DNA of 64,000 nt from contig OX597824.1 in assembly GCA_951406725.2 (NCBI GenBank), forward strand, positions 54,374,001 to 54,438,000, written 5' to 3'. The position numbers were made by a program, and so were the translations under genes. The stretch comes from Octopus vulgaris. Its lineage: Eukaryota. Below, in pieces: positions 1,013 to 61,451 of this stretch; the first letter of the stretch is position 1; every line of letters begins with the position of its first letter. The notes under the pieces were generated by a model that saw only the letters and a list, made by a program, of their open reading frames with translations, did not search any database and was not told where the DNA came from.

Positions 1013-1231
1013 TGAAAAAAACGAAAAATATAACTGTGAGATTTTTTCTTACACTCATATATATATATATATAGAGAGATAGAGAGAGAGAGTATATACT
1101 TACGTATAGGATGAAAAAAGTGGGTACGTAGCCGCCATTATATATGTAAAAGTAAGAAAATATATACAAACTGGGACAAGAACGTGAAACACCTAGAAGA
1201 CGACACAAGAAACACAGGACGGGACATTCGA

Positions 1232-1297
1232 AGCCCTCAATCATCAGTCAAGAACCGGATCATCTTCGCAATTTCGGCTGATTAATCTTGAGATTGC
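1232..1297 (-). ncRNA. Hammerhead ribozyme candidate, non-circularly permuted (copy A)
   Basis: Minus strand reads GCAAU-C-UCAAGA...AGCC-GAAA-UUGC...UCUUGA-CUGAUGA...GGCU. Confidence 0.6.
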
Positions 1298-2083
1298 TCC
1301 GATCTGGGCAGCCCCCAAGGGAAATCTAAGCCAAGCGCATTAGATCCCTTGGAGGAAAGCCTCGAATGTATACAACACAAGGAGGGAAAACGTGTCGTCT
1401 TCTAGGTGTTTCACATTCTTGTCCCAGTTTGTATATATTTTTTACTTTTACATATATAATGGCGGCTATGTACCCACTTTTTTCATCCTATACGTAAGTA
1501 TATACTCTCTAACATTGGTACGACTCTTGATCTGTCTCTTTCTCTCTCTCTTTCTCCTCCTCCCTTATTCCCCTTCTTTCTTTCTCTCTTCATCCGTCCC
1601 CCCTCTCCTACGTTTCTCTGCCTCTCATACCTTACACTCCCCTCGATCTGTCTCTTTCCCTCTCTTTCTTCTCCTCCCTTGTTCCCCTTCTCTCTCTCCT
1701 CATCTGTCCTTTTCTCCTCTCTTTTGTCCCCACGTGACCAGCCAGCGACTGCTGCTTTGCCCTTTCGCATCCAGCAGTCATTGTAGCAACACGTATTTGT
1801 TTGTCTCCTGTGGCCTAAAGGCACTCTTCCACTAGCCCCAAACTCAACTCGTCCTGTCGAAAGACCCTTGTCCTGACGTCCTGGTTTTGTTTTTATCCTT
1901 ACCATTATTGTTTTTATGTATTTGTATTCTTATCCGTGCTTTCTTTATTGTTTTTACGTATTTTTGTATTTTTATTCGTGTACATCGTCCGTTTTCTGTC
2001 CTTGTGTTGTATACATTCGAGGCTTTCTTCCAAGGGATCTAATGCGCTTGGCTTAGATTTCCCTTGGGGCTGGCCAGATCGGA

Positions 2084-2149
2084 GCAATCTCAAGATTAAT
2101 CAGCCGAAATTGCGAAGATGATCCGGTTCTTGACTGATGATTGAGGGCT
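2084..2149 (+). ncRNA. Hammerhead ribozyme candidate, non-circularly permuted (copy B)
   Basis: GCAAT(2084-88)-C-TCAAGA(2090-95); AGCC-GAAA(2106-09)-TTGC; TCTTGA(2128-33)-CTGATGA(2134-40); GGCT(2146-49). Confidence 0.6.
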
Positions 2150-2236
2150 TCGAATGTTCCGTCCTGTGTTTCTTGTGTCGTCTTCTAGGTGTTTCACGTT
2201 CTTGACCCAGTTTGTATATATATTTTTTTTTACTTT

Positions 2237-2300: not shown

Positions 2301-3003
2301 AAAGTATTGAAGCCATCTTATCATGGCTAACCACATTGGGGAGGGGGTGTTACTGTAGCTTTATAACCCCAAGAGATCGTCGTCTCTAGCTGGCTTTAGA
2401 CACAATATCAGTGCCCTTGGAGTATTTGCAAAGGGAGGCCATCCCTTCCTCGCAAGCTTGAGTGATACGCTCGAACTAGTTTCGGGATTTTTGTCCCTTG
2501 TCAACGGGCGGTAACCACCAGGTCGCGATGAAAGTGAAGGCTGCTTTGCAAATATATAAGTTTTTCTAGTGGCGTCTGCCACTGATGTCGAAAAACTAAC
2601 AATAAGGATAATCAAATCTCAGAATGAGATTGAAACAGTAATCGCTCGATAATGTAAAGTATTGAAGCCATCTTATCATGGCTAACCACATTGGGGAGGG
2701 GGTGTTACTGTAGCTTTATAGCCCCAAGAGATCGTCGTCTCTAGCTGGCTTTAGACACAATATCAGTGCCCTTAAACTAGTTCGAGCGTATCACTCAGGC
2801 TTGCGAGGAAGGGATGGCCTCCCTTTGCAAATACTCCAAGGGCACTGATATTGTGTCTAAAGCCAGCTAGAGACGACGATCTCTTGGGGCTATAAAGCTA
2901 CAGTAACACCCCCTCCCCAATGTGGTTAGCCATGATAAGATGGCTTCAATACTTTACATTATCGAGTGATTACTGTTTCAATCTCATTCTGAGATTTAAT
3001 TAT
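2299..3003. mobile_element. Penelope-like/retrozyme-type element: 355-bp unit x1.3 plus inverted copy, inserted in (TA)n
   Basis: 2299-2418 repeats at 2654-2773. 2774-3003 is the reverse complement of the unit across the tandem junction. (TA)n on both sides; copies near-identical. Confidence 0.8.
2468..2510 (-). ncRNA. Minimal type I hammerhead ribozyme with U3-A8 core variant
   Basis: Minus strand: CGCCCG-UUGACAA-GGGA-caaaaa-UCCC-GAAA-CUAG-U-U-CGAGCG, with palindromic stem III (AACUAGUU). Confidence 0.75.
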
Positions 3004-16447: not shown

Positions 16448-16942
16448 TTACTGAATAAAATTACTGCCGTTGTTTGTCAACAAGAACTTCCAGAGGTGTA
16501 TATTTCGTTTGTCACTGTTATTTACGACAACCCTAACCCTAACCCTAAAACCTTAACCCTAAAACCTTAACCCTAACCTTAACCCTAAAACCCTAAAACC
16601 TTAACCCTAACCCTAAATCCCTAACCCTAACCCTAACTCTAAAACCTTAAAGCTAAAGCCAGTACAAACGTACGAACAATGAAACGAAAAATACACCGCC
16701 GATAGCTGTTGTTGACAAGCAACAGCAGTAATTTTATTCAGCTGAACACACGTCATTGACTGGTTGAAATTAACGAAATACGACAACTTTAACGTGAAAT
16801 AACTTCCTAAATATAAGCTTTTCTTAAAAACGCTACGAGTAAAAGATGTTTTATATGACACATTCTACCAGTATCTGAAGTTTGAAAATGTTTAGTTACA
16901 AAAAATTATTTTTTAAATCTGTTGGTCAAATGGTAAAGATCC
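16448..16942. mobile_element. Merlin-type MITE end containing (CCCTAA)n telomere-like array
   Basis: Degenerate CCCTAA repeats at 16530-16650. Terminus ..GGTAAAGATCC and subterminal GACACATTCTACCAGTAT are shared with 5041-6583 and 24756-25168. Confidence 0.7.
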
Positions 16943-29019: not shown

Positions 29020-31230
29020 TATTTCTACTCTCTTATGCGTGAATGAGCCTTATCCATCCTCACCCTGGAGCAGAGGCTCATTCTGTTGTGCATGAATGAG
29101 TCACTGTCATTCTGTTATATGTCAATGATTCATCATAACTGTTTTATATGTGAATGAACTATCTCCATTCTGATATGTGAGAAGGACTCGTCTCCATTCT
29201 GTTTTACTTGAACGACTCATCTCCTTTCTCAAATATGCACATGAGCAATTTCCCTTTTGATATGTGTGACTGACACATTTCCATTTGGTTATATATGAAC
29301 ATCACCATTCTGTTAAATGTGAATGACCCATGTCCATTCTCTTTTGTGTGAATGACTGATCTCCATACACTTATGTTTAAACGACACTATCTTTTCTTTA
29401 TGTTAATGTAGCATCTCTTTCATTCTGTGTATGAATGCACCATCTCCATACATTTGGTTGCAAATGAACCATCTCTAGTTTCTATATGTGAATGACTAAC
29501 CTCCACTTTCTTATGTATGAAAGAACCCTGACAATTCTGTTATGAGTGAATAAGCCACTGTCATTCTGTTACGTGTGAATCATCCATCTCTGTTATGTGT
29601 GAATTACTTACACCAAACATGTCCATTGTGTTATATGTGAATGACCAAATCCATTATTGTATATGTGAATGAGTTACCTCAATTCTGTTATGGGTGAATA
29701 AGTTATTCCCATTTTGTTATGTGTGAATGTGAATATCTCTGTTCTGTTGTGTACAAAAAAAAATCTGCCGTTTCTTATAAGAAAGTGATTTACCTTCAAT
29801 CTCTTATCTGGAAAAGAGATGTCTCCATTCTATTATATTTCAATGAGCCATCATATTGTTAAGTGTAAACAAGTCATCTCCATTCTGCTATATGTGAATG
29901 ACTTCTCTCCATTTTGTTACATGTGAAACAGCCCTCTCCATTCTGTTATGTGTGCATTGGTTGGATCTTATGCATTTAATAGTAACTGTTATTTCACTGC
30001 ACAAGTAATATTGAAGTTGGTTGTGAATTATAAAGTTCCACAACAAGTCAACACAATTGAAGGAATAATTCAGTTGTATTCAAAAATTCTTGATTACAAA
30101 AGATCTGTACTGAAGTTTATCAAGACAAGAGAAAATATGCACAGTAGATTCATATTGACCAACTATAACAACATAACCAGAAAGTTGTGAAAATGATTAT
30201 TATAAACAGCAAGAGAGCATGTGGAGCTGGAATGCAGGTTACCACACACTTGGTAACTTGGCACTAAAAGCAAGCCTTTATATAACCCTTGTATTGTGAC
30301 ATCCAGAAGCATCTATAAAAACCTATCACATGAATTCTGGCTGCTGATTTGTAAAAAAAAATTTGACCTCTTATATGAACAAAGTTGTGCTGTGTATGAA
30401 TTAACATTTGTAATTTGATAACTCAGTTTCAAGTCTTGCTACATGTGAACGAGTCGTCTCCATTCTGTTATATTTGAATGGACTATCTCCATTGTTTATG
30501 TGTGAATGATTCATTTCCATTCCATTATGTGAGAACGAGCCATCTCCATTTATGTTATGTGTCCATGATTCATTCCCATTCTGCCATGTGTGGAATTATC
30601 TCAATTCTCTTATATGTAAATGATCCAGATGTATGTGCATGGACCATCTTCATTCAGATGTACATGAATGAGCTATCTTAATTTTCTTCTGTGTGAATGT
30701 GCCATCTCCATTCTGTTATGCGTAAATGAGCAATTTACATTCTGTTATGTGTGAATGATCCATCTCCATTCTGTTATGAGTGAAGGAGTCATCTCCAGTC
30801 TACATCTGGTCTGTTATATGTGGAAGAATCCTGTCCATTCTGTTATGTGTGAATGGTTCATTTCCATTCTGATATGTGTGAAAGACATATTTCTATTCTG
30901 TTACATGAGAATGTGCTATTTCCATTCTCTGATGAACAATATAGTTTCCGTTTTTTGTGAATGAGCTTTATTCATTCTGGTGTATGTGTATGAGCCATCT
31001 CCATTCTACTATTTACTATTAAGCCACTTTCAATCTATTATGTGTAAATGCTGTATTTCTATTCTGTTATCTGTGAATAACTCATTTACATTTGATTTCT
31101 GTGAATGATTTGTCTCCATTATATCATATTTAAAAAAGCCATCTCCAAGCAGTTATCTGTGAATGAAACAACATCATTCAATTATGAGCCATCTGCTTTT
31201 AGCATGTGTGTATGAATGATTTTCATTCTG
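29020..31230. repeat. Degenerate ~29-bp minisatellite, interrupted by an insertion at ~29960-30425
   Basis: Consensus approximately CCATCTCCATTCTGTTATGTGTGAATGAG, tens of copies. Confidence 0.85.
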
Positions 31231-41669: not shown

Positions 41670-44120
41670 ATGTGTTTGAATGAATGATGGTGCACTTGCT
41701 TTTAGTGATTCTGAAAAGAAAGAGACTTGGAGAAGCCATTATGAAAGACTGCTGAATGTGGAGAATGAATGGGCGGAGGAGAGCCTTCCAAATGTTGACC
41801 CAGTAGAGGGATCAGCTATCTCAATAGACAGTTCCCTAGTAGATAAAGCAGTTAAGGGTATGAAGCCAGGAAAAGCCCCTGGCCCATCAGGAATCACTGC
41901 AGAGATGCTTAAAGCATCTGGTGGTGTGGGCTATAGCTTAGTCACCCGCATTGTTAACCAGGTAGTACATAACAGAGTCATACCCAATGACTGGCATAGC
42001 AGCACCATAGTCAACTGCTACAAGGGTAAAGGTGATGCTCTAGATAGGAATAACTACAGGGGTATTAAACTGATGGATCAGGTGATGAAGGTCACAGAGA
42101 GTGTCATAGTCCATCTCATTAGGGAGAGAGTCTGCTTAGATGAGATGCAGTTTAGTTTTGTTCCAGGTAGAAGCACCACTGATGCCATATTCCTGGTTTG
42201 ACAACTGCAGGAGAAATACCTAGCTAAAGATAACCCCTCTACTTAGCTTTTGTGGACTTGGAGAAAGCCTTTGACAGGGTCCCCCGATCCCTTATCTGGT
42301 GGGCAATGCGGAAACTGGAGATTGACGAATGGTTGATAAGGGCTGTACAGGCCCTATACAGAGAGGCTGTTGGTAAGGTTAGGATTGGCAACGAGTATAG
42401 TGAAGAATTCTGGGTAGAAGTAGGGGTCCACCTTAGTCCCCTTCTATTCATCATAGTCCTCCAGGCAATAACAGAGGAATTCAAGATGGGTTGCCCCTGG
42501 GAGCTCCTCTATGTTGATGACCTGGCCCTCATAGCAGAATCACTACCGGAACTAGAAAAGAAATTTTGTGTGTGGAAGCTAGGTTTAAAATCAATGGGCC
42601 TTAGAGTAAATGTAGCAAAGACCAAAGTTATAGTAAGCACAAAGGCGAACTAATCACACTCTCCCTCGGGCCTTGCTTGATCTGTAGAAAAGGTGTAGGT
42701 AGGAACTCCATAAGATGTACCCAGTGTAAGCTATGGATGCATAAGAGGTGCAGCAACATCAAAGGAAAATTAACTGAGAAGATAGCTTTCGTGTACAGCA
42801 GATGCACAGGGGCAATAGACACCACAGATACTCAGAAAACAGATTCCATCACACTCCAGGGGGAGAAACTAGAAGTAGTTGATAGTTTCCACTACCTAGG
42901 TGACCAAGTTAGTTGTGGAGGTGGATGCTCAGAGTGTCACCACTAGAATACGAATAGCCTGGGCAAAGTTTAGAAAGCTCCTACCCCTACTGGTGACAAA
43001 GGGTCTCTTGCTCAGAGTGAAAGGTAAACTGTACGATGCATGTGTGTTTCACTACCATGAAGCATGGGCTGTGACTGCGGAGGACATGCATAGGTTTGAA
43101 AGAAATGAAGCTAGCATGAACCACTGGATGTGTAATGTCAGTGTGCACACATGACAGAGTGTAAGCGCCCTGAGAGAAATGCTGGACATAAGAAGCATCA
43201 GATGTGGTGTGCAAGAGAGACATTTGTGCTGGTATGGTCATGTACTGCGGATGGATGAGGAGAGATATGTGAAGAAGTGCCACTCCCAAACAGTTGAAGG
43301 TATCCAGGGAAGAGGTAGACCCAGGAAGACATGAGACGCGGTAGTCAAGTATGACCTTTGAAAATTGGGCCTCACAGAGGCAATGAAGAAAGACCAAGAT
43401 CTCTGGAGATATGCTGTGACTGCAAAGACCCAAGAAATAATGTGAGTTCATGGCTGCTTCCTGCACCAGTTTCGTATAGTCTCAGCCCATCCGAAGTACC
43501 TTGGTTTGCAGAACGACCTGCTGTGCTTACCTTGGATTGTAGGGTGACCTGCTGTGCTTGAGGAGACCTATTGAGTCAAGTACATCAACATCAAAATAAA
43601 TATCAAATGGAAATTGTAATTATGATACCTGTGCCGGTGGCACATAAAAAGCACCATCCGAACGTGGCCGATGCCAGCGCTGCCTTGACTGGCTTCTGTG
43701 CCAGTGGCACACGACCTGCTGTGCTTGACGAGACCTATTGAGTCAAGTACATCAACATCAAAATAAATATCAAATGGAAATTGTAGTTGTGATACCTGTG
43801 CCGGTGGCACGTAAAAAGCAGCATCCGAACGTGGCCAATGCCAGCGCCGCCTTGACTGGCTTCTGTGCCGGTAGCATGTAAAAAGCACCAACCGATCGTG
43901 GCTGCTGCCAGCCTCCCCTGGCACTTGTGCTGGTGGCACATAAAAAGCACCCACTACTCTCACGGAGTGGTTGGCATTAGGAAGGGCATCCAGCTGCAGA
44001 AACACTGCTAGATCAGACTGGAGCCTGGTGCAGCCTCCTGGCTTCCCAGACCCCAGTTGAACCGTCCAACCCATGCTAACATGGAAAACGGACGTTAAAC
44101 GATGATGATGATGATGATGA
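41670..44120 (+). mobile_element. RTE LINE, 5'-truncated (RT to (GAT)n tail), decayed
   Basis: KAPGPSG, NYRGIKL, RSTTDAIF, DLEKAFDRVP, LLYVDD. 3' UTR with an internal ~170-bp duplication at 43550-43880. Confidence 0.95.
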
Positions 44121-47028: not shown

Positions 47029-49069
47029 ATCATCATCATCATCATCATCGTTTAGCGTCCGTTTTCCATGCTAGCATGGGTTGGACGGGTCAACTGGGGT
47101 CTGTGAAGCTGGAAGGCTTCGTCAGGCCCAGTCAGATCTGGCAGTGTTTCTACGGCTGGATGCCCTTCCTAACGCCAACCACTCCGCGAGTGTAGTGGGT
47201 GTTTTTTACGTGCCACCTGCACAGGTGCCAGACAGAGCTGGTGAACGGCCACGAACGGATGGTGCTTTTACGTGTCACCGGCTCGGGGCCAGGCGATGCT
47301 GGCAACGGACACGAACGGATGGTGCTTTTACGTGCCACCGACACGGGGCCAGACAGAGCTGGCAACCGGCCACGAACGGACGGTGCTTTTACGTGCCACC
47401 GACACGGGGCCAGATAGAGCTGGCCAACGGCCACGAACGGACGGTGCTTTTACGTGTCACCGGCACGGGGCCAGGCGAGGCTGGCAACGAACACGAACGG
47501 ATGGTGCTTTTACGTGCCACCGACACGGGGCCAGGCAGAGCTGGCAAACGGCCATGAGCGAATGGTGCTTTTACGTATCACCGGCACGGGTGCCAGACAA
47601 GGCTGGCAGCGGACACGAACAGATGGGTCACTTAACCCCTGCTTTCTGATATATGATTTGATTTTGATTGTTCTCACTGGTCTTGCCGGGTCTTCTCACG
47701 CACAGCATACTTCCATAGGTCTCGGTCTCTGGTCATTTCCTTGGTGAGACCTAGAGTTCGAAGGTCATGCTTCACCACCTCGACCCAGGTTTTCCTGGGT
47801 CTACCTCTTCCACAGGACCCCTCAACTGCCAGGGTGTGGCACTTTTTCACACACCTATCTTCATCCATTCTCACCACATGACCATACCAGCGCAATCGTC
47901 TCTCTTGCACACAACATCTGATTCCTCTTAGGTCCAACTTTTCTTTCAAGGTACTTACACTCTGTCGACTATGAACACTGACATTACACATTACTAGCTT
48001 CATTTCTCGCGAGCTTACGCATGTCCTCAGCAGTCACGGCCCATGTTTCACTGCCATGTAGCATGGCTGTTCGTACACATGCATCATACAGTCTGCCTTT
48101 TACTCTGAGCGAGAGGCCTTTAGTCACCAACAGAGGTAAGAGCTCCCTAAACTTTGCCCAGGCTATTCTTACTCTAGCCGTTACACTTTCAGCACACCCA
48201 CCCCCACTACTGACTTGGTCACCAAGATAACGGAAGCTATCAACCACTTCTAGTTTTTCCCCCTGGAAAGTGACGGAAGTTGTTTTCTGCAGATTTTCAG
48301 AGGTTAATGCTCCCGAGCATCTGCCACATACAAAAACCATCTTCCTAGTTAGCCTTCCTATGACATTGCTGCACCTCTTATGTGTCCATAGCTTACACTT
48401 GGTGCATCTTATAGAGTTTCTACCTACACCTTTTCTACAGATCGAGCAGGGCCATCTACCTGAAGGCGTTTGTGATTTGTCTACCTTCCTACTTATTACG
48501 ACTTTGGTTTTAGCTAGGTTGACTCTAAGGCCCTTCGATTCTAAACCATGCTTCCACACCTGAAACTTCTTCTCCAGTTCTGATAATGACTCAGCAATTA
48601 GAGCAAGGTCATCAGCATAGAGGAGCTCCCAGGGGCATCCTGTCTTGAATTCCTCCGTTATTGCCTGGAGGACTATGATAAATAGGAGGGGGCTGAGGAC
48701 TGAGCCTTGGTGGACCCCTACCTCTACCCGGAATTCTTCACTGTACTCATTTCCAACCCTCACCTTACTAGCAGCGTCCCTGTACATGGCTTGCACAGCT
48801 CTCACTAACCATTCTTCTATTCCTAGTTTCCTCATTGACCACCATATGAGGGATCGGGGGACCCTGTCGAAGGCTTTCTCCATGTCAACAAAAGCCAGGT
48901 ACATGGCCTTATCTTTGGCTAGGTATTTCTCCTGCAGCTGCCTTACCAGGAATATAGCATCAGTGGTACTTTTCCCTGGCACGAAACCAAACTGCATCTC
49001 ATCTAAACTAACTCTCTCTCTAATTAGTTGGCTTATGACCCTCTCTGTAACCTTCATCACCTGATCCAT
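47029..49069 (-). mobile_element. Young 5'-truncated RTE LINE; 361-aa open RT/C-terminal segment with PHD-like finger; ~60-bp tandem 3' UTR
   Basis: QFGFVPGKSTTDAIF, HQGSVLSPLLF, LLYADD; (ATG)n tail at 47029-47049. Confidence 0.96.
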
Positions 49070-49149
49070 TTGTTTGCATCTAAAATTAATGATCTTGTGA
49101 AATTTTTAAAAACGCCCATCCTCTCTGTCCCATCCTATACATACATACG

Positions 49150-53719: not shown

Positions 53720-53834
53720 CATAAAGTATAAAATTATTGTTATAAAATAATATTAATAATAATAATGATAATAATAATAATAATATCAGTAGTATGCATT
53801 AAAACCATAGAGGTAAAAATTTATATAAATATAT

Positions 53835-55995
53835 ATATATATATATAAATCCAAAAGATGGAACAAGAATGCAACAAACGACAATAAAACATCTGGACAG
53901 ATAACTGATACAAAGATGGATAGAAAAAACAATAAAAAAGATGAATAGGATAAAACAAGGATGGGTCAATCACAGCCTTCTCTAGTCAGTCAAGTTGTCA
54001 AATTATCCTACAGTTTCATCTGGTTACACTTGAGACTGTTCAAAAATCTAAGCTAAGAGCACTAGATTTTTTGGGAGAAAGCAAGCAAATGTGTACGACA
54101 ACAAAGACAAAAAAATGGAGAAAATGTTACAGTCACAAATACAAATCGCAAGATAAATAACGACAGGTGTCTTTCAACTAATAAAGACGAATCAAATTGA
54201 GCTGGTGTGTGTAGAGTGAAAGCCTTGAGGTAGGAACACTGAGATTAACATAATAGATGAAAGTCATGAGACAGGAATATAAGAGATGCTTAGTGGCCGG
54301 CAGTTGAGCCTGGAAAGAAAGATCATACCTGGCCAAATACCGGTCATGTGGAAGGAGAAGAGAGGGGTAGGGGGCAGAGTGATTGAAGAATTAGGAAAGA
54401 ATGAGAAAGAGAGGAAATCAAAGGGACATAGAGAAAGGTACAAGGGAGATAAGTGAGGATGGAAAGTAGGGGTTAAAGAAAGAGGAAACCAAGAAATGTG
54501 AGAGAGGGGGAACAAGAAAAAGAAAAGGGAAAAGAAAGAAGGTATGAGGAGGACTAAAGAAAGAGTAAAAGAGTCATACAGAATTTAGATACATACTTAT
54601 AAGGTGAGCAAAAATGTATGTACGCCACTCTATGTATATATAAATTTTTTAAAATGGAACAAAGACACAACAAACAACAATAAAACATCCAGACAGATAA
54701 ATGATACAAAGACGGACAGGAAAAAAACAAGGATGGGTCATTCGCAGCCTTCTCTCGTCAATTAAGTTGCCAAATTAACCTTACAGTTTTGGTCAGTTAC
54801 ACTTGAGACTGTTCAAATCTGGCAGGCCCCAAAAATCTAAGCTAAGAGCATTGGAGCCAACCAGATTTGAACAGTCTCAAATGTAATTGACCAAAACTGT
54901 AAGGGTAATTTTGCAATTTGATGGATGCTTGCTTTCTCCCAAAACATTTAATGCTCTTAGCTTAGATTTTTGGGGTCAGCCAGATTTAAACAATTTCAAG
55001 TGTAACCAGCCAAAGCTGTAAGAATAATCTAGAAACTTGACTGATGAGACAAGGCTACGAATAGCCCATCCTTGTTTTGTCCTGTCCGTCTTCATATCGT
55101 CTGTCTGGATATTTTATTGTCATTGTTGCATTCTTGTTCCATTTTTTGAACTTATATATATATAGTAGCATACATACACTTTTGTTCACCTTGTAAGTAA
55201 GAATATATCTAAATTCTGTACGACTATTTTACTCTTTCTTTTAGTCTCCCCTCATACCTTCTTTCTTCCTACTTTCTTTACTCCTTTCCTTTTCTCGCTC
55301 CCCATCTCTCACATTTCTTGGCCTTCTCTTTCTTTAATCTACCTATTTTTCATTGTTTATCTCCCTTGTACCTTCTCAATGTCTCAATGATTTTTATTCT
55401 CTTTCTCATCCTCCCCTTAATTTTTCAATCCCTTCGTCCCCTACTTCTCTCCTTTCCTTCCACATGACCGGTGTTCAGTCAAGCATGATCTTCTTTCTTG
55501 GCTTAACTGCCAGCTATAAAGCACCTCTTATTCCTGTCTCCTGACTTTCATCTCTGATGTTCACCTATGTTCCTGCCTCAAAGCTTTCACTCCACACACA
55601 CCAGCTCAACTCTCTATTAGTCAAAAGACACTTGCTGTTATTTTCTTGTTGTTTGTATTTGTAATTGAGTTATATTTTCTCTGTATTTTTGTTTTTTGTT
55701 TTGTTTTTTTGTCTTTGTTGCATACATTCACTTGGTTTCTCCAAAAATATTTAATGCTCTTAGCTCAAATTTTTGGGGCCAGCCAGATTTGAACAGTCTC
55801 AAGAATAACTGGCCGAAATTGTAAGGATAATCTGGAAACTTGACTGAGGAGAGAAGGCCACGAATGGCCCATCCTTGTTTTGTCCTGTCCACTTTTTGTT
55901 GTTTTTCTTGTCTGTCTTCATATCATCTATCTGTCCAGATATTTTATTGTCGTTTGTTGCATTCTTGTTCCATTTTTTGAACTTATTTATATATT
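53835..55995. mobile_element. Older subfamily of the ~0.8-kb permuted-hammerhead element, tandem units in head-to-head inversion
   Basis: 53835-54850 on minus (1.25 units) and 54855-55995 on plus (~1.3 units, period ~803 bp). Homologous to 1088-2240. Confidence 0.75.
55793..55860 (+). ncRNA. Permuted hammerhead candidate (intact-core copy of the older subfamily)
   Basis: ACAGU-C-UCAAG..UGGCC-GAAA-UUGU..CUUGA-CUGAGGA..GGCCA. Confidence 0.6.
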
Positions 55996-56116
55996 TATAT
56001 ATATATGTATCTCATACATTGGCATTACATATTTATATACACCAATGGATATGCATACATATACATATGTGTGTGTGAAACTGATAAACTAAATACTATT
56101 TACAATAAAAATTCAC

Positions 56117-56627: not shown

Positions 56628-59600
56628 TCATCATCATCATCATCATTGTTTAACGTCCACTTTCCATGCTAGCATGGGTTAGATGATTTTGACTGAGGGC
56701 TGGCGAACCAGATGGCTGCACCAAGCTCCAATCTTGATTTGGCAGAGTTTCTACAGCTGGATGCCCTTCCTAACGCCAACCACTCCAAGAGTGTAGTAGG
56801 TGCTTTTTACGTGCCACCGGCATGGAGGTCAGTCAGGCGGTACTGGCAACAACCTCACTCAAATCTTTTTACACATGCCACCAGCACAGGTACCAGTAAG
56901 GCGATGTTGGTAACGATCACACTCGAATGGTGCCCTTTTACGTGCCACTGGCATAAAAGCCAGTTGGCTGCTCTGGCAACGATCACGCTCGGATGGTGCT
57001 CTTGGCACCTTACTAGCACGGGCACTAGTGCCAGTAAGGTGATGCTGGTAATGATCAACTCGAATGGGGCGTTTTTTGTGCCACTGGCACGGAAGTTGGT
57101 TAGCCGCTCTATCAACGATCACACTCGTATGGTGCTCTTTGCGCCCCACTAGTACGGATGCCAGTTATCGAATGTGATTTGGATTTCAGTCGCCTCAATA
57201 GGTCTTCACAAGCAGAGTTTAGTGTCCAAGGAAGGAAAAGGTACACATAAGTGGGCTGGTAATGCTCCTGGCAAGGGCCACAGGTTATGGTCTCATTTGG
57301 CTTGCCGGGTCTTTGCAAGCACAGCATATTTCCAAAAGTCTCGGTTGTAGTCATTTTCTCAGTGAAGCAAAATGTTCGAAGGTCGTGCTTCACCACTTCA
57401 TCCCAGGTCTTCCTGGGTCTACCTCTTCCACAGGTTCCCTCAATCACCATTCTCCATTCTCACCACATGACCATACCAGCGCAGTTGTCTCTCTTGCACA
57501 CCACATCTGACATTTCTCTCAAGTTACCTACACTCTGTCGAGTATGCACACTGACATTACACATCCATCGGATCATACTGGCTTCATTCCTTGCGAAATT
57601 ACGCATGTCCTCAGCAGTCACAGCCCATGTTTCACTGCCATGTAGCATTGCTGTTCGTACACAGGCGTCATACGGTCTACCTTTTACTCTGAGCAAGAGG
57701 CCCTTTGTCGTCAGCAGAGGTAAGAGCTCTCTGAACTTTGCCCAAGCTATTCTTGTTCTAGCAGCTACACTTTCAGTGCACCTACCTCCGTAACTGGCTT
57801 GGTCCCCTAGGTAACAGAAGCTATCAACTACTTCTAGTTTATCTCCCTGGAAGGAGGTGGAAGTTGGTCTCTGCGCATTTTCAGTGTTTATTGCTCCCAA
57901 GCATGTGCCACATACAAAAACTTTCTTCCCAGTTAGCCTCCCTTTGATATTACTGCACCTCTTATGTGTCCATAGCTTACACTGGGTACATCTTATAGAG
58001 TTTCTACCTATGCCTCGACTACAGATTGAGTAGGGCCATCTACCTGAAGGGATTTGTGGTTTGCCTGCCTTCCTACTTATTAGAACTTTGGTTTTAGTTA
58101 GGTTGATTCTAAAGCCCTTCGATTCTAATCCTTGTCTCCACACTTGAAACTTCTCCTCTAGTTCTGATAGTGACTCAGCAATTAGAGCAAGGTCATCAGC
58201 ATATAGGAGCTCCCAGGGGCATCCTGTCTTGAATTCCTCCATTACTGCCTGGAGGACTATGATAAATAGGAGGGGGCTGAGGACTGAACCTTGGTGGACC
58301 CCTACGTCTACCCTGAATTCTTCAGTTTACTCGTTGCCAACCCTCACCTTACTTACAGCATCCCTGTACATGGCTTGCACAGCTCTCACTAACCATTCAT
58401 TTATCCCTAGTTTCCTCATTGAGCACCAGATAAGGGATCGGGGGACCCCGTCAAAGGCTTTCTCCATCTCAATGAAAGCCAGGTACAGGGGCCTATCTTT
58501 GGCTAGGTATTTCTCCTGCAGCTGTCTTACCAGAAATATAGCATCAGTGGTGCTTTTCCCTGGCACGAAACCAAACTGCATCTCATCCAAGCTGACTCTC
58601 TCCCTAATCAGTTGGGCTATGACCCTCTCTGTAACCTTCATTACCTGATCCAACAGCTTGATACCTCTGAATTATTTGTATCTAAAGTGTCACCTTTACC
58701 TAGCAGTTGACTATTATGCTGCTACACCAGTCATTGGGTATGACTCCTTCGTGTATCACCTGATTAACTATACAGGTGACTAGGCTATAGCCGACACTGC
58801 CAGATATTTTGAGCATCTCTGCAGTAATTCCTGATGGGCCTGGGGCTTTCCCTGTCTTCATACTTCTAATTGCCTTAACTACTAAGGTACTGTCAATTTG
58901 GATAGCTGGTCCCTCTCTTGGGTCGACATCCATCAGACTCGCTTTCTCTCATTCATTTTCTTTATTCAGCAACCTTTCATAATGACATCTCCAAACCTCT
59001 CTCTTTGCATCCTCATTCAGCGCAAGTGAACTATCATCCATGTGAACACATTTCTCTCCTACAACATCCCGATTTTCTCTCACACACTGTCTTGCAACAC
59101 GAAATACCTCATGCCGCAGAACATTGGCAAATTTTTTCTCATCTGCTTCTCCTCTGGCTAAATAAACCTGCCTCCTAGCTTCCCTTCTGGCAGTCTGATA
59201 CACTTCCCTGCTACCACCATTCTTCCAGTCCTTCCAAGCCTGTTTCTTTAGTCTGATAGCCCTGTCAACAACATTGTCCCACCACCACGTTATTTTGGGT
59301 CTTAAGGGGACTTTGCACCATCCACAGATTTGGTCGGTGGCCCTTAGCAGGTTGTCCCATAGGAACCTCCAGTTGTCTTCTATACCATGTGAAGCTATAT
59401 CCCCTTCTATTTCGTCAAAGGCTTTGAGTAATATGTCTCTAAATCTCTGTCCATTTGCAGGATCTTTAAGTCTCCAGACCCTTCTCCTTGCTGGTCGTCT
59501 TCTGGGCATCTATTTAGCCCTGATTCTGAAGTCACTAACTACTAGTCTATGTTGTGGGGTACATTCTTCTCCTGGGAAGGTTTTGGCATTTATAAGCAGC

Positions 59601-61400: not shown

Positions 61401-61451
61401 AGCTTCTACAGGACTAGTACTGTTTCATTCAAGAGAAATCTTCAGGAAGCT
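61401..61451 (-). ncRNA. Type I hammerhead ribozyme
   Basis: Minus strand AGCUUC-CUGAAGA-U-UUC-ucuu-GAA-U-GAAA-CAG-uacuaguc-CUG-U-A-GAAGCU; perfect 6-bp stem I. Confidence 0.82.

Follow-up and report, generated by a model that had tools for sequence, protein, structure and literature searches.

A hammerhead-like motif of about 150 nt, permuted in a non-circular order and with its CUGANGA block split, lies near the 3' ends of 0.8-kb repeated units in the 64-kb stretch of Octopus vulgaris DNA analysed here (the window), and quite probably it is a ribozyme that cleaves. The letters of this motif, their order, their possible pairings, the covariation among them and the anatomy of the element were observed directly in the DNA. 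The conserved motif is likely to cleave itself after UC at 55798 (2089 in subfamily 1), and the units are likely to be non-autonomous, Naiad-associated, (TA)n-targeting Penelope-like retroelements. A broader proposal, which we favour with a little less confidence, is that active hammerheads, permuted non-circularly, occur in Naiads of six or more animal phyla. About half of them (including the family in the window) would have a four-block form, in which a helix and a hairpin would split the core between A9 and G10.1 and a second junction would cage it; in this family, the junction would involve a kink-turn, through which cleavage could be tuned by an L7Ae-family protein. If this is true, these are the first non-circular hammerheads found in animal genomes or retroelements, as judged by the open-licence PMC and bioRxiv literature, the assumption that the CUGANGA block is uninterruptible would be overturned, and the search space for hidden ribozymes would be widened. 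That literature yielded no account of a non-circular hammerhead in a Naiad and none of a split block C; a hammerhead with a split CUGANGA block is a form that we could not find in print there.

The 5' to 3' order of the parts is X', hairpin H, Y, k, III', UH, I, Y', GAAA, III, k', I', CUGANGA and X. In the best-preserved subfamily 2 copy, all on the plus strand, these parts comprise X', the predicted partner of the strand after A9 (55724-55741); hairpin H (55742-55776); Y, the detached 5' strand of stem II, the first G of which is the equivalent of G10.1 (55777-55782); the 5' strand of helix k with the UGA side of a kink-turn-like loop (55783-55792); block S, with the 3' strand of stem III, U16.1-C17 (predicted cut after 55798) and a strand of stem I (55793-55804); block G, with the 3' strand of stem II, GAAA and the 5' strand of stem III (55809-55822); the bulge strand of the kink-turn-like loop (3 nt, then GA and U) with the 3' strand of helix k (55823-55835); the partner strand of stem I with the CUGAGGA core (55838-55850); and the X strand, which follows A9 and closes helix X (55851-55866). 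Two motifs of subfamily 1, both with a complete core, are found at 2013-2157 (+), with the predicted cut after 2089, and, inverted and with approximate ends, at 1224-1369 (-), with the predicted cut after 1292.

Stem I (5-6 bp) and stem III (5 bp) covary between the two subfamilies. Stem III is GCAAU/AUUGC in subfamily 1 and ACAGU/ACUGU in subfamily 2, and stem I is UCAAGA/UCUUGA in the former and UCAAGU/ACUUGA in the latter, with UCAAAU/AUUUGA in one fragment (C, below); all of these changes, listed in the original prediction, were found in the sequence, and they include one pair changed on both sides in stem I and two in stem III. The prediction had also set in advance that the compensatory changes should be kept at the level of the subfamily. 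Contigs of four public runs (596, 594, 467 and 87 contigs) were aligned to 55650-55975 at 80% likeness, with 55650-55719 skipped as a repeat; most of the contigs are less than 95% alike, three of the runs are of unrecorded kind under three organism labels, and the one with 87 contigs is guessed to be RNA. In these contig letters, which are unphased and biased towards the reference, 55819 is C in 79-92% of the depth and 55804 is T in 86-95%, in all four runs. The majority letters of subfamily 2 are ACAGU/ACUGU and UCAAGU/ACUUGA, with both stems compensated, and the compensatory changes passed the test. Position 7 (55848) is the sole core position among 40 of the 48 variant rows. No position where many molecules start or stop was listed in these runs, as would be so for contigs whether or not the RNA is cut. 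A contig of the run guessed to be RNA (X1) matches the junction of fragment C and copy D (54910-54925 of the window), and this run contains the 53835-55995 locus or a close copy of it.

The permuted hammerhead claimed originally came with no account of stem II, and it is here that the claim had to be altered: the S-G-C order of the blocks stands, but a plain permutation does not, with stem II detached from CUGANGA. In register next to A9, where type SGC or a hammerhead with 0-2 nt in between would have it, stem II has only 0-1 pairs. The strand before GAAA pairs with the upstream strand Y over 5-6 bp, at an offset of -21 from the cut, in 3/3 complete copies (4-6 bp overall), and this Y/Y' helix carries compensatory changes between copies. 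The strand after A9 pairs with a strand still further upstream, forming helix X/X' (15 bp in subfamily 1), hairpin H sits between X' and Y, and stem III runs on through an internal loop (UGA on one side, 3 nt and GAU on the other) into the 7-bp helix k. In the contigs of the four runs, subfamily 2 mostly has A.C as the fifth pair of stem II, and A makes up 23-37% at 55782; therefore, stem II is dependable for four pairs in this subfamily, while a minor T at 55781 and an A at 55810 would make a U-A pair if they are in phase. The start of helix X is frayed in subfamily 2, where its first pair is uncertain (55851 is A in 59-86%, and its partner is not among the 40 rows), and has two U.U in subfamily 1. 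Kink-turns have a consensus of a 3-nt bulge followed by tandem G.A/A.G between two helices. This sequence pattern is present at the end of stem III in 3/3 complete copies, as well as in Naiad_Obim and Naiad_Ovul, and its G and A positions are absent from 40 of the 48 variant rows.

On unconstrained minimum-free-energy folding, 2003-2180 formed hairpin H, the upstream stem II and a helix X of 15 bp; the other helices, I, III and k, cross them and are beyond the reach of the folding tool used. When all seven helices were scored in six copies (the fragment excluded), 89% of 245 cells were paired and 8 of 45 pairs were changed on both sides, as against 25-42% and 0-3 pairs, respectively, in controls with slid partners. 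A control with shuffled letters was less favourable (23/500 for pairs changed on both sides and 481/500 for pair types), and these figures are not a probability; the structure was derived from the same rows, and these represent two clades.

In this fold, Y/Y' would serve as stem II and provide the G10.1-C11.1 pair on which A9-G12 stacks, given the core geometry described in the available part of PMC11300833. X and H, continuous on one strand, may stack end to end, so that the exit from A9 and the entry to G10.1 would meet at one nick, and the pair would act as one big insertion between A9 and G10.1, a step at which inserts of one nucleotide are known (PMC3705267 and PMC4209133, in the parts available). 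The kink at the end of stem III would fold helix k back, so that its distal end could join those of stems I and II in a second junction, in place of the contact between loop I and loop II.

The complete catalytic core (CUGANGA from C3 to A9, G12-A14, A15.1-U16.1 and a residue 17 other than G) is retained in 3/7 copies in the window, namely, those cut at 2089, 1292 and 55798. Of the five subfamily 2 copies, all found where they had been predicted (residue 17 at 54034(-), 54807(-), 54876(+), 54995(+) and 55798(+)), four have altered invariant core positions, and the sole complete one is that cut at 55798. The copy at 54034 has G8U and a 20-nt deletion that removed the upstream strand of stem II; that at 54807 has C3U and G12A and lacks the X' strand; that at 54876 has G12A and a truncated core; and that at 54995 has an intact CUGAUGA, with G12A and A15.1G. 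Judging from these letters, four of the five subfamily 2 copies are probably dead. The core was said to vary at position 7, which it does, but the variation is not limited to this position. Likewise, the surroundings were said to be more diverged than the motif; this is the case between the subfamilies, which align over about 180 nt only, but not among the old subfamily 2 units, in which identity is flat along the length (0.46-0.87 per 60 columns, and 0.68-0.77 in the motif). Because of this flat identity, the genomic copies show decay rather than selection after insertion, and the purifying selection proposed for the fold cannot be read from them. Selection on a permuted hammerhead-like fold is nevertheless supported by the majority letters in the four runs and by the recurrence of the fold, as read by eye, in Naiads of five phyla, and it acted on master elements, not on the mostly dead copies of the window.

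The window consists of AT-rich, microsatellite-filled animal DNA with decayed retroelements. On self-BLAST, the subfamily 2 locus has a minus arm, with a 5'-truncated partial copy (B, 54852-54636) in a pseudo-LTR-like tandem upstream of a full unit of about 0.8 kb (A, 54631-53835, with the predicted cut residue at 54034), and a plus arm, with an inverted fragment at the junction (C, 54851-54925), a 5'-truncated partial copy (D, 54921-55163) and, downstream of it, a full unit (E, 55164-55995). Unit E is 832 nt long and has a pyrimidine-rich body, the motif near its 3' end and a terminal (TA)n. The two arms meet head to head, and (TA)n is present at both outer flanks (53817-53850 and 55986-56008). 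The cut-to-cut spacings of the paired motifs in the partial tandems are 773 and 803 nt. The original description of the units (about 0.8 kb, with (TA)n at the flanks, in head-to-head inversion and in tandem, albeit partial) was thus correct. The units are non-coding, as no open reading frame of 120 or more codons was found between 52568 and 56697. Subfamilies 1 and 2 can be aligned over about 180 nt around the motif alone (72% over 182 nt, E = 2e-18). CpG observed/expected is higher in subfamily 1 (0.78 at 1500-2210) than in subfamily 2 (0.28-0.33 at 53851-55985), and subfamily 1 is therefore the younger of the two.

If transcripts that read through, or that span a partial tandem, were cut once per unit, this would free a unit-length RNA (803 or 773 nt), which the reverse transcriptase/endonuclease of a Naiad could then copy in trans into (TA)n. 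A retrozyme in the strict sense would require a further step, compatible with this scheme, in which two cuts and a ligation give a circular RNA of about 800 nt as the transposition intermediate. We regard this added step as possible but doubtful. Two motifs are indeed set 803 and 773 nt apart by the partial tandems; animal retrozymes, which make circles according to the part of PMC7229834 available, have been proposed to be non-autonomous derivatives of Penelope-like elements (PLEs) (bioRxiv 10.64898/2026.07.22.740005, as far as its accessible part goes). However, the animal retrozymes described in the same part of PMC7229834 are non-LTR elements arranged in arrays, with repeats of 150-450 bp and a type I ribozyme, whereas the octopus units measure 0.8 kb, have a motif that is not type I, and are truncated and inverted in the manner of PLE insertions. 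The element fits Naiad-type PLEs better than the described retrozymes, to which it had been likened initially.

According to the available part of PMC8557442, Naiads have a bias for (TA)n, which is also the target of the octopus Naiads, and occur as partial tandems and inverted 5'-truncated copies. The same three features are present in the 0.8-kb units, which further resemble Naiads in having the motif near the 3' end and, by eye, the same wiring. Unlike autonomous Naiads, the units have no open reading frame, and one with an N-terminal GIY-YIG endonuclease and a reverse transcriptase is absent from them; the likeness of the 3' sequences is one of architecture and of spacing as judged by eye. 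As the element is non-coding, we call it Naiad-associated rather than a Naiad. In the part of that paper available, Naiads are reported to be without canonical hammerheads, and 10 cases of 'HHR_core' and eight of 'HHR_half_core', the latter including Naiad_Ovul, are given without their fold.

The 3' ends of the published Naiad consensus set (54 sequences, from the accessible part of the supplement to PMC8557442) were read by eye and non-systematically, and all statements on them below have this basis. The split wiring was recognized at the 3' end of 11 of the 54, in five phyla and with unrelated arms: the ctenophore Bfor (stem I of 2 bp only and a long insert); the cnidarians 3_Chem, Amil, Aacu, Anas and 2_Movir; the acanthocephalan Plae (stem II GGCCCC/GGGGCC, X AGAGG/CCUCU); the crustacean EuTe (stem II GACGCC/GGCGUC, stem III of 10 bp, X GGGG/CCCC); and the cephalopods Obim (stem II GACACC/GGUGUC, stem I CUGCCC/GGGCAG, stem III AUGGU/ACCAU), Ovul and Esco (weak stem II). 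Because the three corals are near-identical, as are the two octopuses, the number of independent cases is about eight. In the split form, it is the G at the start of Y that faces C11.1, in 10/11, and not the residue after A9, which can be A, U or C; G never occurs at residue 17, where A, C or U is found. Naiad_Obim and Naiad_Ovul share with the window motif a 5-bp stem III and the loop of UGA and 3 nt-GAU. Seven other Naiads, from nematodes and spiders, have at this place an intact type-CSG form that shares the k helix and has stems I and II of 4-6 bp: two Pristionchus (assigned by list order), Nbra-1, -2 and -3, Hpol, and Smim, in which one U is inserted after A9. Only two natural type-CSG sequences are mentioned in the available part of Eckert 2023 (PMC10085705). 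Taking X and H out of the split form and opening the chain between III and k' would turn it into the type-CSG form. No such motif was seen at the 3' ends of Naiads Omin, Adux, Dcar, Ppla, 1_Skow, 1_Chem and 2_Chem, and the Naiad listed before EuTe (4_Dst by list order) could be read either way.

A hammerhead-derived fold might be real and yet be non-catalytic, or cleave only with protein, serving as the structure by which the Naiad reverse transcriptase recognizes the 3' end. The published rule, in the part of PMC10085705 available, allows no more than 1-2 nt between CUGAnGA and its stems; the split core, which has no precedent in the literature covered, breaks this rule, and activity is therefore not guaranteed. 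Copying starts at the 3' end, and the motif is situated 70-150 nt from it. In another PLE (PAc), the hammerhead is protein-assisted, is not required for insertion in vitro and gave rise to no read ends (PMC11167929, accessible part), which leaves room for a non-catalytic or protein-dependent role in the window motif as well. Against this, the catalytic letters, A15.1-U16.1 and a residue 17 other than G are kept in Naiads of five phyla while the arms change, position 7 varies freely, and seven other Naiads have the intact type-CSG form at the same place. A mere recognition fold thus seems unlikely, and a hammerhead that cleaves is preferred.

The known forms nearest to this split hammerhead are types SGC and CSG (Eckert et al. 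2023, PMC10085705; the comparisons are with the part of that paper available), which share with it the S, G and C blocks, three crossing helices and an extra helix tying the far ends. The linker from stem I to stem II has 4 nt in the octopus copies compared with typically 3 in types SGC and CSG. Block C (I'-CUGANGA-II) is unbroken in the forms of Eckert et al., whereas in the window motif the 5' strand of stem II is upstream of the cut and a separate helix follows A9. Although the S-G-C order and the short linker are those of type SGC, the motif is not assigned to this type, since its stem II is not contiguous with CUGANGA. The Eckert forms came from metatranscriptomes, metagenomes and one bacterium, with none from an animal genome or a retroelement in the part available. 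Type I hammerheads of PLE pseudo-LTRs and retrozymes (PMC4209133 and PMC7229834, parts available) are likewise ribozymes in PLE-type terminal repeats and often, in PLEs, have one nucleotide between A9 and G10.1 (PMC4209133), but they are circular permutations with a contiguous stem II. In the pseudoknot (PK) hammerhead (PDB 8YDC; PMC11300833, part available), the position of helix II is also rewired, by a pseudoknot, and the shape of the core is kept; in that ribozyme, however, the block order is canonical, and G10.1 comes directly after A9 and forms its pair with C11.1 within one short loop. The CChMVd (+) hammerhead tolerates an insertion at the same A9/G10.1 step (PMC3705267, part available), of one nucleotide compared with an open helix plus hairpin in the window motif. 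The accessible part of PMC10162972 has nothing on extra helices.

A plain type-SGC hammerhead could still be drawn if stem II used the GGCY that lies five nucleotides downstream of A9, leaving a 5-nt bulge. Four such pairs can form in subfamily 1 and in 2/4 subfamily 2 copies, and three of the first four in the remaining two. This arrangement is improbable, however: helix X is predicted to tie up the downstream GGC, the upstream strand offers 5-6 compensated pairs at the fixed offset in every complete copy, and the Naiad homologues have the upstream strand but, by eye and in the part of the set available, no such downstream partner. The split form with the upstream strand as stem II is thus retained.

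As to chance, a descriptor of the S-G-C order with stem I of at least 5 bp and stem III of at least 4 bp had three matches in the window, which represent two independent subfamilies, and the window covariation rests on those two. In 3910 block-wise dinucleotide shuffles it had 59 matches, 16 of them with an upstream stem II of at least 5 bp, that is, 0.015 per shuffled window (0.004 with the upstream stem II). When the letter pattern was used without pairing rules, 0/32 matches in metagenome contigs had a stem III of at least 4 bp in the S-G-C order, in contrast to 5 bp in 3/3 matches in the window, and viral contigs yielded no matches to this pattern. A chance resemblance in an ordinary repeat, with neutral drift between two subfamilies as the source of the covariation, is very improbable given these rates, the fact that nothing but the motif aligns between the subfamilies and the recurrence in Naiads of five phyla, even though the window holds only two independent subfamilies and several of the changes are CpG-type transitions, in keeping with the low CpG ratio of subfamily 2.

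Other models were also applied to the window. No Rfam hammerhead model reached its gathering score in the window, and none matched over the motif at E ≤ 10. Canonical types I-III were not found on either strand of the copies with a six-order descriptor (stem I of at least 5 bp, stem III of at least 4 bp), the other matches of which, at 61407 and 32335, are in low-complexity DNA and without stem II. Matches of hairpin-type miRNA models on 54772-55003 (Rfam, E ≤ 10) are an artefact of the head-to-head inverted repeat, and a reading as twister, by eye, fails in subfamily 2 at P2 and P4. In the metagenome contigs, ordinary type III hammerheads, as judged by their look, were noticed in L004, L015 and L032, with two in one 128-kb contig.

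Several further repeats are present in the window. A distinct element flanked by (TA)n, with copies in both direct and inverted orientation, occupies 2296-2990 and is a conventional PLE-type neighbour. It carries, at 2452-2522 (-), a motif resembling a canonical type I hammerhead, which scores 31.6 bits (E = 1.9e-05) against Rfam HH9, short of the gathering score of 52, and has a core decayed at C3. A minisatellite array of about 2 kb with a 29-bp period is found at 29057-31209, and a degenerate telomere-like repeat, (AACCCT)n, in an internal position at 16529-16651. Fragments of reverse transcriptase open reading frames are found at 47984-49105 (-), 57460-59509 (-) and 41680-42653 (+); by eye, these are not Naiad-like, and we take them to be of the RTE-type LINE from their look.
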